Assembly: GCA_963789265.1 (NCBI GenBank)
Contig: CAWBKB010000005.1
Location: forward strand, 480,001-544,000
Source: an uncultured delta proteobacterium
Lineage (GTDB): Bacteria; Desulfobacterota; Desulfomonilia; Desulfomonilales; Desulfomonilaceae
Reading direction: 5' to 3'
DNA length: 64,000 nt
Positions 39,001 to 54,000 of this stretch are shown one piece after another (the stretch's first letter is position 1; each line of letters begins with the position of its first letter). A program made the position numbers.

Positions 39001-42000
39001 TGGGCACCCCAAACGGCCCCACTATTCGGGCCGGGAAGCCATATCCCCGGGGTCAACCAATATCCTTTTGACCCCACTCAGGGGAAATATGTTTGGCACT
39101 GCCATAACCTGCAGCATGAGGATAATGAGATGATGCGCCCTTTCAAGGTTTTGCCCTGAGACGATCAATAAGGCCATGAAACTCTGCGGTGTAAATACGC
39201 AAAATGAAGACCGGCAGGCGCTCCGCCTTGCGCGGCACTTACTTATTTTCGAGATCCAAAAAGAGGTACAGGGCTGCGATCATTACCGAACAGGTGACCT
39301 TGCCGGATCTTATGTAATCCCTGATTTGATCCAGGGGAACGAGAACAGTTTCAATTTCTTCGGTCTCATCGGGATTCAAATGGCCCGTAGGAGTAGCGTT
39401 TCTGGCCAAATAAACATAGAAACGGTTTGTGAAGATCGCGGGCATGGGGTGCATCCAACCAAGGAACTCCAGCGTGTCGGCCCGGTATCCCGTCTCTTCC
39501 TCCAGTTCCTCACGTGCGCTCTGCTCAGGCGCCTGGCCGTCCTTGACCAGCCCCCCGGGAGGCTCAAGAGAAAGCTCGCCGGTTCCGTGGCGGAATTGCT
39601 TGACCATGACGACCTGATTATCCGGAGTCACAGCCACAACCGCGGCCCAGTCCGGAGATTCTAAAACTTGGAATTCGTGAATCTGCCCTGTTCGTGGGGA
39701 CTTGTTCTTGTGAATGTGAACTGAAAAGAGCCCGTATTCCTTATCTTCACGGCTGTCCACCAATTCCCATGATAGGCGCGGGGTCTCGGTGCCTTTGTCC
39801 ATATAAGCCTCCGGTGATGATTATGAGGAATGCACTGAAATTATTACAGTGAAGCTCAATGCGCTGCACCATCAGCACTCGAAGTCCGAGGTTTCCGCGC
39901 TTTCCTTTTCATGCCCCACGGGCACACCCTTATACAGACTCCGCAAATAGGACTTTCGATAAAGGGCAGTCTGATAAATTCCTGGCTGACCTTCGCCACG
40001 CAGCGCTCGAAATAAATTGCTTCATTGCGATCGGAGTAATGCCAATCGGTGTTTACGTTTTTAATGGCCCGGGCCGGGCAAGCCTTCGAGCAGGCCAAGC
40101 ACTTACCGCATCGGTTCTTTATCGGCTTATCCGGGGCGAGGAGAGCATCAGTGAGAATCGTAGCCAACCTGACACGCGGCCCGTACTCCGGATTCACAAG
40201 CAAAAGGCTCTTTCCTTGCCAGCCCAGGCCCGCGGCAACGGCTACCGCTTTGTGAGATATATACGAGCGCCAATTCGTCTTATCCAGCACCTGAGATGCG
40301 GGAATCGGGAGAGCTTGGCTCCGGCCCGCTGTAGGAACTGGGAGACACGCACGGCGACGTCGTCGAGCAGCGCGTTTACTTTAAGATAATGCTGCTGGTA
40401 AAGCGGTGTAGGGGAATCGACAATGGGATCTATGATGCCGTCTGCCAGCCTCACCGCGATGCTCACGGCCCTTTCATAGCCTAGCAGAAGGTGTTGAGGT
40501 TCTGTCTCGAGACCTTCGAGCAGAGCCAGATCAGCCACGCCGACAACATCCGCGCCGCACGTGCGGGCAAACTTTTTAAGCCCAGAGCTATTCAATCTTG
40601 TCTCCTCCTGGCTCCTGTGCTCCTGATGCAACTTTTGCGACAATCGCAAAGATTCAGCATACGAGATCGGATGTAATCCGGTTGGGCCCAGACATTCCAG
40701 CCGTATGCGCTGTCCTTCTGCACGTCAGAGCACAACTCCGTTCGGAGTCATGCCCAAGGACCTAATACAATTGTCAAAGCGATATAAAAGGATGTTTGGC
40801 AAGAAGTACGCGCCGTACCTCGATATTCTTCTAAAATAAGGCGCCGAAGCATTTTCTGCAAGAGAGTAATCGGCGCCTGCATTTTGGGGAAGGTCCGGCT
40901 CTAGGAAGGAAAGAGCGTCTACCCTATCGGTGCTATCAATCACCCATACGACGGGATGACCTCCTTGAGGCTCCCCTCAGAGATGAATGCTTCATAGTTG
41001 TGGATCAGTCTCTGGACAACTGCTCCGGCCAGCCGTTTGTAGAACATCATTCCGCTTGCGGGGTCTTTATCAAATATCTTGTTCAGGTTTCTGTTTTCGA
41101 TTTTCATTATCGTGCTGGGGGCCGCACACTCCGCGGTGGCTGTGTACACGAGCCGGTCTACCAAGCCAGTCCATCCGAAGGCCTCGCCCTCGACGTTAAC
41201 CGTATAGCTTATCTCCGATTTTTTTCCGATGAACAGACGTACCATTCCCCCGACCAGGATGTAAAAATTTTCGGCTGGCGTTCCTGCCTCAAATATTAAT
41301 TTGCCTGGCTCGTAAGACTCTTCGGTCATGATTTTGGAAATCTCGTTCACAATCTCAGGGCTCAAGTCCTTGAAAAGGTCGGCTTTTTGGATAATCATGG
41401 CTTCTCCTTTCTGTTAGGAAGACATGTTTGAAATCCCGCCGGCTCCAACTATCTCCGCAACTTCGTCGCATTCTGTGCTTTTCGTCTATGTTTCGTGGTG
41501 TTCCTCCTCTTCTTCCAGTCTTCTTAAGACTGACTATCCCGAAGTTCTCATAGTGGCCTCCAAAATGAACCCACAGCCGTCACAGAAGCACGTATGTAAA
41601 GAACAATCAGCTCATGTAACTATTGTTACCGGCCGTGACATGGGAGTCAATCAGAACTTTCTTCCACCGGTATTCCTTCAGTTACGCGGGGAATCTTCTG
41701 GCTCCTGTCATTGCGAGGAGTGAAACGACGAAGCAATCTAAGCGCCGTTTGAAGGAAGAGATTGCTTCGCTTCGCTCGCAATGACAATCCTTTGCCGCAC
41801 GTAAGTGAATGGATACTTCCACCGGGATTTGGATCAAGCTTTAGCGTTCCTTCCAGCAGCAAACAGTATCGGAAGGGAAATCAGTTGAGCCACTACGGAA
41901 AACTCTACGAGAGCAGGGAGCGAGATATCGTACAGGACGCCCATCAGAGCACTTCCACCAAACCAGAACAGGCCGAATGCCATATTGAATATGCCAAAGG

Positions 42001-51000: not shown

Positions 51001-54000
51001 TATTTATCGCTTGATAACGAACCAATATCACTGCTCGAATACTCCCTATATAAGTCGAGAAAAACAAAAGACCCGCACCAGCAAAGCTGTGCGGGCTACG
51101 TTTAAACTAAAAACCCACCCAGCTTACACGGGGTGGGGTAAGATCTATCTCTTAAGAGACTCCTACCCCATAGCGGTAGGAGTCATAAGCTCATAGGAAA
51201 AATCCCGGAGCAGTTCAGGCAGACTCCATTGCCTTCAATAGTGTCGCGCATAATTACAAAACAAATGCACCCTTGTCAAGCATGCTGAGAGCAACCAAGC
51301 GATCTGTTTCCTAAGTGCAGTCCTGTGTCATTTTTTAGGGTTAAGATTGCTTCGCTGCGCTCGCAATGACAGGTCCCCGAATGTCCTTGCGAGCGCAGCG
51401 AAGCAATCTTAACTTTGATGCGGACTCATATTTATGCCATCGCGTACTACACCCCCTTGAGCCACCCGAGAGATGACTGCAAGGTTGCCGGCTCCACAAG
51501 TGCTGTACTACAAATCGAGCACAGCGGACAGCGTCTCAGTCAGTTCCATAAAATCCGTTTGCATCTCCTTCGCCGGATCTCTCGCTTCACCAGCCGAATA
51601 AGTATAGCCAAAGTGTTTGTTGATGGCGAACGCTCTGTCTTTGCAATAAGCTTCAAGGGAAGGTTTGGTCATGCTGCCAATCAGGTACGCCCCAATTGAA
51701 CCACCCCATCTGAAATGGGGCCCGTCTCCTCCGCTGTCACCAACGATCACTACTTGATTCGGCCCTATCCCCGAAGAATTCATTACGGATTGGGTATTCT
51801 TGGGCTTGTCTTCAATTTCATTGACCCAATACATGTAACGAGGGGCTTCCGACTCTCCCAAAAAACGGATTAGAGGATTGGAGGCCACAAATGGAACATC
51901 AGGGATGAGATTCCGGGCAAGCATCCGCTGGAAATAGCCTTGCGGTCCGGTGGTATTAATCATGAAAAGAATGCCATGATCCCGGCACCATTGGATGAAA
52001 TCAGGGACGCCGCGATACGTAGCGAAGTTAGCGTCGAGATAAGCATCCATCTGATCTACCGTAATGGGAGCAGGAATCAGGGCCGAGATTTGTTGGGTGG
52101 CCTGGGTCAGAGAAATCTTGTTGCCCGTATACTCGGTAAAGATTTTAGATAGCTTTGGTTCCAGATCCGGATAGGTAAATGAAATCGGATCGAATGGACC
52201 GGATGGCGCCAAACATTGGTTCCAATCCGATGAAACGAGAGCCTGGTACTTCATTTCTCTTATCCTTCCTTTCTCCTCAGATAAATTGCAACCGCTTCCC
52301 CGCCACCGCCGTGTCGCCAAGCCCAACGAAACTTATCGTGGGTAATGTACAGCGCGAAGAACATCTCGGTTATTTTCTCAGTTCGAAGATTCGGCAGGCC
52401 CAGCGGGGAATCACTCCAGCTTCTGCCCTAATTTCGCTCATAGTCCCTTCTGAATGTCCTCTTGTAAAGGTCTTCGCCATAGGCGGTCTGCAACGGCTCT
52501 CCTTCGATTAGCCGAAAAGTTCGTGTCCCGTCGGTTCGCCTTTCTGCTCGTAAGAAAAGGGCGTTGTTCACTTTCTTGTCAAAAAAATCGCGGGCGAATT
52601 CATACAAATGCGTGACAAAGAAAACCTTGATGTTTTTCTCCAATAATGCGCTGACTATCTGCCTTGCGATCTCCGAGCCTTCTCTTGTATTGGTTGCTGC
52701 AAACGATTCATTGAAAAGCACCAGGGAATTTGACGTTATCATGTCTGCAATATCACTCATCCTGCTCAGTTCTTCGTCAAATTTCCCGCTTTTCATGGTA
52801 GGATCTTCTTCCCTCTTGTAGTGCGTGAAAAGGCCACTGCAAATATTGGCACAGAAAGATTCAGCCGGCACAAACATGCCGCATTGCATCATCAATTGGG
52901 ACAAACCTATGCTTCGCAAAAAAGTCGATTTGCCGCCCTGGTTGGCCCCTGTAATGATCACGAGGTCTTTGTTCTCTGCGTTCACATCGTTACCAACGAT
53001 ATCTCGCTTCATGGTAAGGGCCAAACAGACATCGTATAAGCCCTTAAAGGAATGTCTGCGTTCGCCGGCAGCCACCGGTACGGGAAAAGATATTGGCTCC
53101 CCCATTTGGGCAAGCTGTTCAGATAGATTTAAACAGCCGATGTAAAAGGCCAATTCGACTCGTAACATTTCAAAAAAACTATCAATATGATCGGCAGATT
53201 GAGCAAGTGCGTTGGCAACCAGTCTGATCCCCCTGTTTCTTAATTCCGCCACTGCGTTGGCACCGGCTTCATCCCGATCGGCGACATAATAGGTGTAAAC
53301 GGGAGCGCTTTCGCCAAAGATCCGCTCCAACCAACTTTGTCTTTTATCCAGTGGCTTGCGAAGCACGTAATTGGTGCCTTCGTTGCCTTTTCCTAATTCG
53401 GCACTGATCAAAACCCCCTGGCGAAATTTCAATTCCTTTAAATAATTTTCGACAATGGCGAAATATTCATCATCAAGTTCTCTTTTGATCATCGCGAAAA
53501 ACGTGGTAAAGCCTTCTGACTCAAATTTTTCTGCATGCTCGTCGGCAATATTCTTTAGCTTTTTGAGCAAGCCCACAAACATTTGCAGCATTTCTATCGC
53601 GCTATGCAGGAGACTCGAGGGAAGTTTGCTGAAAAAGCCCATCCAACTTCTTCTCTTGTTTTCAATTGATTCAATCGGGAGTTGATAGATGTCCCTGACA
53701 ATAGCCGAATTTTTCAGGCAATCCTTGAGTATGTTTTGGCGATAAATCAATGTATCCGGATCGGCTGAACCGCACAATACAGCGCTCTTTGCCACTTCAA
53801 ACAAGAATTTGTCACCAAGTGCCACGGCATGGAACATCGTGTTCAATTCCAGGTCCTGTGTTAGCGTTTGTTCATTCGACGGCAATTCCTGCTTCAGGTC
53901 GAAATCTCGATCTTTATACATAAGGAAAGCCTTCATGATTTTATGCGTTCCTTTAAACAACCATAAGTGATGCGATGCTTCTCGGCGATGGATAGCGCGT

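Follow-up and report, generated by a model that had tools for sequence, protein, structure and literature searches.

A fluoride riboswitch in the window, the whole 64-kb stretch of DNA analysed here, heads an operon resembling formate hydrogenlyase, the large subunit of which lacks every cysteine ligand of a [NiFe] site. The sequences support the reading that the encoded complex is neither a [NiFe] hydrogenase nor a formate hydrogenlyase, but an Ehr-type complex, nickel-free and derived from group 4 hydrogenases, with two antiporter-like subunits of the Mrp/Nuo kind. We consider it rather probable that its six subunits form a pump which, once switched on by fluoride, would use a low-potential electron donor to export H+ or Na+. 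The genome-wide survey's note had already recognised the riboswitch, the missing nickel ligands and the Ehr-type character with two antiporter-like subunits, and the present analysis bears it out on all of these.

Organization of the operon

Downstream of the riboswitch, the minus strand carries the genes of the complex in the order H-E-F-CD-B-L, followed by a gene for an MFS transporter. The first gene (49836..50787) encodes a membrane subunit related to NuoH, HycD and HyfC, with the Pfam domain NADHdh detected in both halves. It is followed by a small HyfE-like membrane subunit (49138..49824), which matches the NCBIfam model 'hydrogenase 4 membrane subunit' at 8.8e-14, under the model cut-off, and by an antiporter-like subunit of the HyfF or NuoN-M type (47683..49131; Pfam Proton_antipo_M, 8.5e-50). 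The fused NuoC/NuoD-like 'large subunit' (46068..47675) combines Pfam Complex1_30kDa and Complex1_49kDa with the N-terminal piece of NiFeSe_Hases. The small subunit, similar to NuoB and HycG (45283..46053; Pfam Oxidored_q6), bears an N-terminal half-ferredoxin domain and aligns with HycG, HyfI and NuoB as well as with HycF, HyfH and NuoI. The last subunit is a long antiporter-like protein of the HyfB or NuoL type (43139..45286), matching Pfam Proton_antipo_M at 3.4e-50 and NCBIfam hydrogenase 4 subunit B at 4e-170, again under the model cut-off.

The MFS transporter gene (41834..43036, minus strand; Pfam MFS_1) lies about 100 nt past the HyfB-like gene, and its co-transcription with the operon is not certain because a weak terminator-like site (43162-43144) is found between the two. 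An MFS gene also occupies the 3' side of the operon in the related loci L001, L012, L013, L019 and L041, and orthologues are present in 16 of 50 related genomes. Operon maps of 54 loci contain no gene for an electron-input module (NuoEFG, HycB, FdhF); HycH and HycI are equally missing from the operon, the search covering the operon and not hyp or hycI genes elsewhere in the genome; NuoA, NuoJ and NuoI are missing from the gene set.

The survey's note had described the first gene as a split HycD/HyfC call. The split is a +1 frameshift produced by a single extra base, a plus-strand C at 50392, absent from L001, L015 and L022 and from a Logan contig (run X2) with 150 nt of identical sequence. The gene forms a single open frame in all 47 relatives examined. 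The interruption most likely reflects an assembly error or a polymorphism, not biology.

A large subunit without a [NiFe] site

Related loci with this operon, here called type 1, number 54, where the survey's note had counted 50, and span at least seven phylum-level labels; a nickel-free sister subfamily with about 33% identity is called type 2. The large subunit of the window contains no CxxC motif, nor does the true protein part of the best-match frames of 53 relatives (in the stop-to-stop frames of L024, L035 and L042, CxxC occurs only in the 5' extension ahead of the aligned start). The [NiFe] ligands are the four Cys of the L1 (RxCGxCxxxH) and L2 (DPCxxCxxR) motifs. In an alignment with HycE and HyfG of E. 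coli, none of 50 type 1 orthologues has a Cys at any of the four ligand positions: those matching HycE C241, C244, C531 and C534 read S/A/N/T, S/T/A/G, S (50/50) and E (50/50). The C-terminus ends in ...DR, as in NuoCD, with no protease-cleaved tail. Type 2 large subunits are also devoid of NiFe ligands (74-75 of 75), their former ligand positions reading S/G/T/G versus S/S/S/E in type 1, and the alignments of the two types point to no shared new catalytic site at these positions. The hydrogenase proton-relay Glu is kept in 50/50 type 1 and 75/75 type 2 proteins.

By sequence, the best solved relative of the large subunit is E. coli HycE (7Z0S_E, 1e-52), other solved relatives being the nickel-free 6U8Y_L (3.5e-28) and the [NiFe] protein 6CFW_L (2.8e-30); no NCBIfam model attains its cut-off. 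All 50%-cluster representatives at least 35% identical to the window protein lack the NiFe Cys. A tree of 107 of the 150 representatives, the 43 under 440 aa having been dropped, groups 51 nickel-free sequences in one clade (FastTree support 0.998), the sister sequences of which bear the Cys. The residues aligned to the quinone residues of E. coli NuoCD are replaced as well (Tyr273 by G/A, His224 by A/T). With both the NiFe Cys and the quinone Tyr/His gone, the large subunit presents no recognisable acceptor site. This counts against a pump, as do the missing electron-input module and the lack of a new catalytic site shared by types 1 and 2.

Conserved iron–sulfur and ion-translocation residues

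The small subunit keeps Cys51, 70, 73 and 76 in 49-50 of 51 type 1 proteins, Cys124, 127 and 191 in 50-51 of 51, and Cys221 in 37 of 51. The fourth proximal-cluster Cys is replaced in 14 of the 51 (11 Asn, 1 His, 1 Glu, 1 Ala), mostly in gammaproteobacterial loci, a loss that likewise counts against a pump. In type 2, all 12 Fe-S Cys are kept in 69-72 of 72 proteins.

Conservation extends to the membrane arm. The NuoH-like subunits of 47 relatives conserve the acidic residues matching NuoH E157, D213, E220 and E228, and Glu residues matching HyfE E159 and E178 are invariant in the HyfE-like subunit (51/51). Residues aligned to NuoM E144, K234, H241 and E407 are kept in 47-49 of 49 HyfF-like proteins, and the equivalents of NuoL E144, K229, H334, H338 and K342 and of NuoM E407 in 44-45 of 45 HyfB-like proteins. 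Both antiporter-like subunits possess the residues expected of Mrp-type proteins (TM5 Glu, TM7 Lys, TM8 His/Lys, TM12 Glu/Lys) in 44-49 of 45-49 sequences.

Fluoride riboswitch and leader

The aptamer (51242-51170, minus strand) matches the full RF01734 model (1-64) with 48.1 bits, versus a gathering score of 34, in the Rfam search. A genome-wide search of the 6.06 Mb returned three RF01734 matches, all inside the window. Immediately 5' of the aptamer lies a promoter-like site (51250..51279, minus strand; TTGACA-18 nt-AATTAT, 10/12 matches) with a TG preceding the -10 box, its TTGACA being invariant across four aligned Desulfomonilaceae-type leaders. The expression platform (51060..51184, minus strand) starts with a hairpin in which the aptamer 3' strand GACTCCTACC pairs with GGTAGGAGTC, and continues with two terminator-like elements, each made of a hairpin and a U-run. 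All three hairpins are present in the minimum-free-energy fold (-79.8 kcal/mol, z = -4.6), and the leader alignment shows both terminator stems kept in L001, L015 and L022; a simple terminator scan listed neither platform element. Such a combination of an anti-aptamer hairpin and terminators would fit an ON switch.

Closer to the genes, the leader contains an additional segment (50850..51050, minus strand) of about 230 nt that carries palindromic repeats. Only L001 shares it, the leader alignment showing it to be absent from L015 and L022. At 50911-51024 the summed contig depth increases 5-7 fold and opposite-strand joints are present. The terminators and the repeat insertion standing between aptamer and genes, together with the frameshifted first gene, also count against the pump reading.

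Distribution of the riboswitch among relatives

Upstream DNA was available for 49 type 1 loci, 46 of which have a same-strand RF01734 match at or above the gathering score, the other three having sub-threshold matches (25.8-29.9 bits), so that no locus is without one. Riboswitch matches lie 31-344 nt ahead of the NuoH-like gene in 47 cases; a Na+/H+ exchanger gene intervenes in L020, and phosphoesterase and enolase genes in L051. Type 2 has the riboswitch at 44 of 45 loci, the 13 weakest nhmmer matches all being upheld by Infernal at no less than 45 bits. In type 3, a further, widespread nickel-free Ehr clade, none of the 20 loci sampled in Desulfobacterota has a fluoride riboswitch. These counts support a near-universal linkage among orthologues; types 1 and 2 together form a single monophyletic nickel-free clade, which the riboswitch marks. 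Since type 3 is devoid of it, the link with fluoride is clade-specific and not valid for all Ehr complexes. The survey's proposal of a first inducer for Ehr complexes was too broad for the class.

In 8 of 50 related genomes, no fluoride riboswitch was found besides the one ahead of this operon. The operon neighbourhoods are fluoride islands, with genes for CrcB, DUF190, Na+/H+ exchanger, enolase and MutS-like proteins, and also for PPDK and formate-THF ligase. The relative L001 is near-identical, its large subunit being 93% identical; it has the leader in common with the window, and its first gene is intact.

Comparison with known systems

Complexes of this kind were reportedly described as 'energy-converting hydrogenase related' by Marreiros et al. 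2013. MBS and Mbx of Pyrococcus furiosus provide a nickel-free descendant of group 4 hydrogenases that couples redox chemistry to ion movement, MBS reducing sulfane sulfur at its proximal cluster. The present complex matches MBS in sequence (PDB 6U8Y, 3.5e-28), but MBS has another subunit set, no riboswitch and a known substrate. With E. coli Hyc (7Z0S) and Hyf it shares homologues of HycD/HyfC, HyfE, HyfF, HycE, HycG and HyfB, the proton-relay Glu and the Arg and His of the L1 motif. It differs from them, at about 26% identity, by the loss of the four NiFe Cys and of the C-terminal tail, by the absence of FdhF, HycB, HycH and HycI genes from the operon, and by a HycF shrunk to a half-domain fused onto the small subunit. 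Complex I has counterparts in the NuoB, NuoC/D, NuoH and NuoL/M/N homologues, the channel residues and the ...DR C-terminus; however, NuoEFG, A, J and I are absent here and quinone Tyr273 and His224 are replaced. Unlike the Mrp antiporter, the complex keeps a peripheral Fe-S arm and is without MrpB, C, E, F and G.

The name Ehr, for 'Ech-hydrogenase-related', is given to the Geobacter sulfurreducens complex GSU0739-45, whose function is called unknown where PMC6349859, PMC10284858 and PMC7894505 treat it. As presented in these sources, it likewise comprises group-4-hydrogenase-like subunits, Mrp-type antiporter-like subunits and a large subunit without CxxC NiFe ligands. Types 1 and 2 have the order H-E-F-CD-B-L, a NuoB-like subunit with a fused ferredoxin domain and almost always a riboswitch, whereas type 3 has the order L-H-E-F-CD-B and none. 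Judging by gene order and the naming order of its subunits, the Geobacter complex probably belongs to type 3.

The regulon of the fluoride riboswitch (crcB motif) is said to go back to Weinberg 2010 and Baker 2012. As early as 2010, 'genes encoding formate hydrogen lyase' figured among the crcB-motif targets (PMC2864571). A 2024 review, in its treatment of these genes, places them with Na+/H+ antiporters among the commonest riboswitch-linked genes, still reads them as a shift to fermentation and connects fluoride stress with pH homeostasis (PMC11139923). By contrast, the targets examined here are not hydrogenlyases. Our literature search found no paper pairing a nickel-free complex with the fluoride riboswitch or denying the hydrogenlyase identity.

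Possible function

In the pump that we propose, fluoride would turn on transcription via the terminator-type riboswitch. The peripheral arm retains a short Fe-S wire, with one ferredoxin-type cluster and the proximal NuoB-type cluster, and the membrane arm retains the channel residues of the NuoH type as well as the Lys/Glu/His chains in both antiporter-like subunits. The electrons would most likely be supplied by a soluble donor of low potential, for instance ferredoxin, their energy serving to move H+ (or Na+) outward. HF entry is expected to acidify the cytoplasm, drain the proton-motive force and poison enolase and the ATP supply. An ATP-independent pump would re-energise the membrane and thereby also support voltage- or proton-driven fluoride export. 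In the survey's proposal, a redox-driven cation pump would restore pH and ion balance under HF stress.

Among the alternatives, a redox-independent secondary antiporter deserves most attention, even if we regard it as unlikely. A Mrp-like exchange of Na+ (or K+) for H+ would be driven by gradients, the hydrogenase-derived arm serving as scaffold or regulator. Such a device would need neither the missing donor and acceptor modules nor an acceptor site, and could tolerate the loss of the fourth proximal-cluster Cys, which 14 of the 51 proteins of type 1 have undergone; moreover, Na+/H+ antiporters are presented as classic members of the fluoride regulon (PMC11139923), and one precedes the L020 operon. 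However, seven Fe-S Cys in type 1 and twelve in type 2 are near-perfectly kept despite large divergence, as is the relay Glu (50/50 and 75/75), which makes a purely structural relic hard to accept.

It is less likely still that the complex is first of all an oxidoreductase for some unidentified substrate, comparable to MBS/Mbx, re-routing reducing power when fluoride blocks enolase and pumping only secondarily. The retained Fe-S wire, the solved relatives 6U8Y_L (3.5e-28) and 6CFW_L (2.8e-30) and the enolase, PPDK and formate-THF ligase genes of the same islands would all suit this role. Yet the former NiFe positions offer no candidate substrate site that is conserved between types 1 and 2, and the operon maps of either type show no recurrent gene related to a substrate.

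We give little credence to the idea that the operon of the present genome is a dead remnant, as the extra base truncating the NuoH-like gene, the two terminator-like hairpins and the 230-nt repeat insertion might suggest. The extra base is missing from the X2 short-read contig, which matches over 150 nt with full identity, and the remaining genes are intact; L001 (93%, large subunit) has the same leader ahead of an intact first gene, and the terminators are conserved, as expected if they belong to a riboswitch platform.

A genuine H2-evolving hydrogenase or formate hydrogenlyase is assumed by the fluoride literature and by the source names ('formate hydrogenlyase subunit 5', 'Ni,Fe-hydrogenase III large subunit', 'nickel-dependent hydrogenase large subunit'), and HycE is the best solved relative, but this identity is contradicted by sequence and highly implausible, given the four NiFe Cys missing in 50/50 orthologues and in every 50%-cluster representative of 35% identity or more, the absent maturation tail and the lack of FdhF, HycB and HycI in the operon.

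The pump remains our preferred reading. With the NiFe site lost and almost every relative linked to the riboswitch, this group of enzymes probably helps its hosts to survive fluoride rather than to produce H2.

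Loss of the hydrogen site in the large subunit

The closest solved protein to the large subunit encoded by the window operon is HycE of E. coli (7Z0S_E, 1e-52), and its orthologues are publicly named 'formate hydrogenlyase subunit 5', 'Ni,Fe-hydrogenase III large subunit', 'nickel-dependent hydrogenase large subunit' or 'NADH-quinone oxidoreductase subunit C'. By aligning 50 family members with HycE, HyfG and NuoCD of E. coli K-12, we could read each ligand position directly. The four NiFe ligands of HycE are all replaced: C241 by S, A, N or T, C244 by S, T, A or G, C531 by S (50/50) and C534 by E (50/50). 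This bears out the genome-wide survey's note, which had described a 'large subunit' devoid of [NiFe] ligands: none of the 50 sequences has a Cys at the four positions, and no CxxC occurs in the real protein part of any large subunit of type 1, the subfamily of the window operon. The C-terminus ends in DR as in NuoCD, with no protease-cleaved tail, and no NCBIfam model matches the protein at or above its cut-off. The proton-relay Glu (HycE E193) is retained in 50/50.

Two other uses of this subunit were dismissed. A quinone site of the complex I type is ruled out by the absence of its ligands, the quinone Tyr (NuoCD Y273) reading G or A and the quinone His (NuoCD H224) A or T in the 50 members. 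The idea that type 1 and its sister subfamily, type 2 (~33% identity), share a novel catalytic site where the NiFe ligands used to be is rejected, as the residues differ between the two. For the targets examined here, the claim that the riboswitch-linked 'formate hydrogenlyase' is not a hydrogenase thus stands, the H2 site being lost, and the hydrogenase and hydrogenlyase names of these large subunits are wrong.

Operon and leader in the window

All three RF01734 fluoride riboswitches that an Rfam search found in the 6.06-Mb genome lie within the window, on its minus strand. The one heading the Ehr-type (energy-converting-hydrogenase-related) operon (51242-51170, minus strand) scores 48.1 bits for a gathering score of 34. 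Behind it follow, on the same strand, genes for a NuoH/HycD-like protein (50787-49836), a HyfE-like protein, a HyfF-like antiporter-like subunit, the fused NuoC/NuoD "large subunit", a NuoB-like small subunit, a HyfB/NuoL-like antiporter-like subunit (45286-43139) and, in seventh place, an MFS transporter (43036-41834).

A promoter-like site (TTGACA-18-AATTAT, minus strand, by sequence match) precedes the aptamer, which is followed by a hairpin sequestering its 3' strand and then by two elements made of a hairpin and a U-run. All of these are kept in an alignment of three related leaders, and the minimum-free-energy fold of the window leader contains its hairpins (z = -4.6). From this layout, we infer a transcriptional ON switch; among the sequencing runs listed for the stretch, none is of RNA. 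The terminator-like hairpins 3' of the aptamer (51060-51140) are two in tandem and not one. The leader is extended by a palindromic repeat of ~230 nt (50850-51050) common only to the closest relative, L001; it is probably a dispersed REP/MITE-like element, since the summed contig depth in the sequencing runs rises 5-7 fold there.

The NuoH-like gene is split in the window into two overlapping HycD-like open reading frames in different frames. One G of the window gene is missing from three relatives in the alignment, and the gene is a single open frame in 47/47 relatives examined. Moreover, a Logan contig of sequencing run X2 that matches the window exactly for 150 nt runs on without the extra base; run X1 holds most of the stretch and its contigs leave 50390-50417 uncovered. 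A programmed +1 frameshift is therefore rejected; with the relatives in frame and the base absent from the X2 contig, an assembly error or a polymorphism is our reading. It might still be a real lesion in the source strain.

A near-universal fluoride riboswitch at type 1 loci

When one genome for each GTDB species was scanned by pattern, 54 type 1 loci came up, all with the same gene order (NuoH-, HyfE- and HyfF-like genes, fused large subunit, NuoB- and HyfB-like genes). Among the taxa on their labels are Desulfobacterota, Nitrospirota, Gamma-, Beta- and Alphaproteobacteria, Acidobacteriota (Acidoferrales), Actinomycetes, Phycisphaerae and Capsulimonadaceae. One operon is represented by two pieces, L050 and L053, and one MAG holds two copies, L014 and L020. 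Five loci (L004, L008, L046, L048 and L050) offer no upstream DNA and were left out of the riboswitch count. Among the remaining 49, a same-strand RF01734 match at or above the gathering score was found in 46 by several Rfam scans (7, 32, 1 and 6 matches, the 32 from a whole-genome scan mapped by contig coordinates). The other three have a sub-gathering match at the same place (L006, 29.9 bits; L039, 26.3; L038, 25.8), so that 0/49 are without any match. For 47 matches, the riboswitch ends 31-344 nt upstream of the NuoH-like gene. A Na+/H+ exchanger gene lies between riboswitch and operon in L020, and phosphoesterase and enolase genes do so in L051. In 8/50 genomes searched whole, with stricter filters and in MAGs that are incomplete, the riboswitch of this operon was the sole fluoride riboswitch found.

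Extent of the fluoride link among Ehr complexes

Homologues of the window large subunit were searched among 1.84 billion 50%-cluster representatives, and 107 of the best 150 (at least 440 aa) were used. Within these 107, all representatives with at least 35% identity to the window protein are without NiFe Cys, and the 27 bearing all four Cys occur solely at or below 34.4% identity. A FastTree phylogeny (LG+gamma, quick alignment) with E. coli NuoCD as root unites type 1 (31) and type 2 (20) in a nickel-free clade of 51 sequences (support 0.998), to which Cys-bearing sequences are sister. Another nickel-free group, type 3, forms a separate clade of 39 (support 0.814).

Type 2 was first met in L032 (with L062), where an operon of this kind immediately precedes that of type 1, and the tandem layout of type 2, riboswitch and type 1 on one strand is repeated in L075 and L076. 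Each operon of these pairs sits behind its own fluoride riboswitch, that of the first type 2 operon scoring 52.9 bits. A metagenome scan from a 6-sequence alignment gave 80 type 2 loci, 45 of which, with 250 nt or more of sequence ahead of the NuoH-like gene, were counted: nhmmer placed a same-strand riboswitch 43-885 nt upstream in 44/45, the exception being L151, and the weakest 13 matches all reach at least 45 bits by Infernal. The large subunits of type 2 read S/G/T/G at the four NiFe ligand positions (67-75 of 75).

A type 3 profile search of 400 sampled Desulfobacterota genomes retained 76 at E <= 1e-120, an upper bound because the type 1 protein of the window passes the same threshold. 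The best 30 matches are all nickel-free and their operons start with the HyfB-like gene, followed by the NuoH-, HyfE- and HyfF-like genes, the large subunit and the NuoB-like gene. No fluoride riboswitch was detected within ~7 kb on either side of type 3 loci (0/20 by nhmmer, 0/9 by Infernal). The fluoride link therefore belongs to the clade of types 1 and 2, and its extension to all Ehr complexes is rejected. The survey's proposal of an inducer for Ehr complexes accordingly has support in this clade (46/49 and 44/45) and none in type 3. In the type 3 locus L193, a c-di-GMP-I riboswitch (9393-9482, 70.9 bits) stands directly after the last gene of the Ehr operon. That the window operon encodes a nickel-free complex of the Ehr type controlled by fluoride is well supported; the same assignment was extended to the sister subfamily and bounded by the third clade.

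A short Fe-S wire and intact ion channels

The type 1 small subunit is a fusion whose N-terminal part aligns with HycF/NuoI and retains just the CP from the first motif and just the CxxCxxC from the second. In two-cluster ferredoxins, this set of four Cys ligates one [4Fe-4S] cluster, the one adjoining N2 in complex I. The four residues are conserved in 49-50/51 type 1 sequences. Three Cys of the NuoB-type proximal cluster are conserved in 50-51/51 and the fourth (PGCPPPP) in 37/51, being replaced in 14 by Asn (11), His (1), Glu (1) or Ala (1); these 14 loci (L025-L030, L032-L035, L044-L047) are mostly gammaproteobacterial. Type 2 small subunits have all 8 Cys of a full two-cluster ferredoxin domain together with the 4 of the proximal cluster (69-72 of 72).

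On the membrane side, equivalents of NuoM E144, K234 and E407 are kept in both antiporter-like subunits, and the central His and Lys aligned to NuoL H338 and K342 are retained too (44-49 of 45-49), as are the acidic residues aligned to NuoH E157, D213, E220 and E228 in the NuoH-like subunit (47/47). A second HyfB-like gene follows the operon in seven loci (L026, L028, L035, L044, L045, L047 and L054), five of which fall within the group with a replaced fourth Cys.

Fluoride islands and candidate exporters

Type 1 loci are fluoride islands, where further riboswitches precede genes for CrcB, DUF190 (with CBS domains), enolase, paired MutS-domain-V ATPases, dynamin-like GTPases, PPDK, a FlK-type thioesterase and others. 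In the window, the riboswitch at 60702-60642 heads genes for a dynamin-like GTPase (60525-58699), a 329-aa protein with no family match (58677-57688), enolase (57502-56225) and a 138-aa protein with no family match (56180-55764). Behind the riboswitch at 55654-55594 come genes for two MutS-domain-V ATPases (55477-53933 and 53960-52428) and a weakly matched HAD-like protein of 272 aa (52326-51508), all on the minus strand. Genes of both units recur behind riboswitches in many related loci. In L001 (1190-1615) and L015 (16297-16866), a FlK-type gene (fluoroacetyl-CoA thioesterase family) lies directly behind a fluoride riboswitch, before the MutS-like pair.

The window genome (95.6% complete) has no match to CrcB (PF02537) and three or four CLC genes, none adjoining a riboswitch. 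Among 50 related genomes, orthologues of the operon MFS occur in 16, CrcB in 23 and both in 3 (Fisher p = 0.014, with phylogeny and the incompleteness of MAGs as confounders), and 13/21 MFS places lie at most 8.2 kb downstream of a same-strand riboswitch. The transporter has no NCBIfam match and its Atlas label is the generic 'MFS transporter'; it could be a fluoride-related exporter. In the titles of several host MAGs, labels of the bog, palsa or peatland type appear, in keeping with acidic habitats, which favour the entry of HF. The best 120 matches of each of two protein searches carry metagenome or MAG names only, with no cultured host among them.

Proposed role and significance

According to a 2024 review (PMC11139923), enolase is a target of fluoride inhibition, and the proton-motive force is needed for resistance. 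We reason that the complex of types 1 and 2 probably functions as an ion pump in fluoride stress. Driven by a ferredoxin-type donor, it would export H+ or Na+ and restore membrane energisation and cytoplasmic pH during HF influx without ATP. This appears the best reading because the H2 site is lost, the quinone ligands are absent, the short Fe-S wire is conserved (and complete in type 2), the ion channels are intact, the switch is fluoride-specific, and Na+/H+ exchangers and fluoride exporters are recurrent neighbours. The main rival is a redox-independent, Mrp-like antiporter, kept in play by the divergence of the former NiFe positions between types 1 and 2 and by the loss of a proximal-cluster ligand in 14/51 type 1 proteins.

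Taking the donor-driven pump further, we would suggest, with somewhat less than even confidence, that the whole monophyletic branch of two subfamilies is a machine dedicated to fluoride stress, pumping H+/Na+ with a ferredoxin-type drive and no ATP and so re-energising the membrane under HF cycling and enolase inhibition, and that in genomes without detected CrcB the operon MFS may be its partner, an undescribed fluoride-related exporter.

Weinberg 2010 (PMC2864571) names "genes encoding formate hydrogen lyase" among crcB-motif targets; 'hydrogen lyase', 'hydrogenlyase' and 'hydrogenase' are all absent from its supplements. The 2024 review still reads these targets as fermentation, and papers on Ehr call the function unknown (PMC6349859, PMC10284858, PMC7894505). 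Our literature search, with Baker 2012, Marreiros 2013 and Coppi 2005 outside its scope, found no paper linking fluoride or its riboswitch with hydrogenase, Ehr, Mrp or NADH dehydrogenase.

In work on fluoride, "formate hydrogen lyase" has since 2010 ranked with the most frequent riboswitch targets, its presence being put down to a switch towards formate fermentation; none of the targets examined here can be a hydrogenase. Thousands of database entries ("formate hydrogenlyase subunit 5", "nickel-dependent hydrogenase") are thereby flagged as misnamed, which matters for surveys of hydrogen metabolism in soils and peat, and the finding is also relevant to the engineering of fluoride-tolerant organofluorine degraders. 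Ehr complexes are widespread relatives of complex I without known signal, substrate or role. With a clade-wide, cross-phylum link to a ligand-specific riboswitch, one Ehr branch gains a defined inducer and a testable physiological role. If our proposal is true, the complex of types 1 and 2 would join the Fluc/CLC-F exporters and the overproduction of enzymes as a third pillar of resistance to fluoride.
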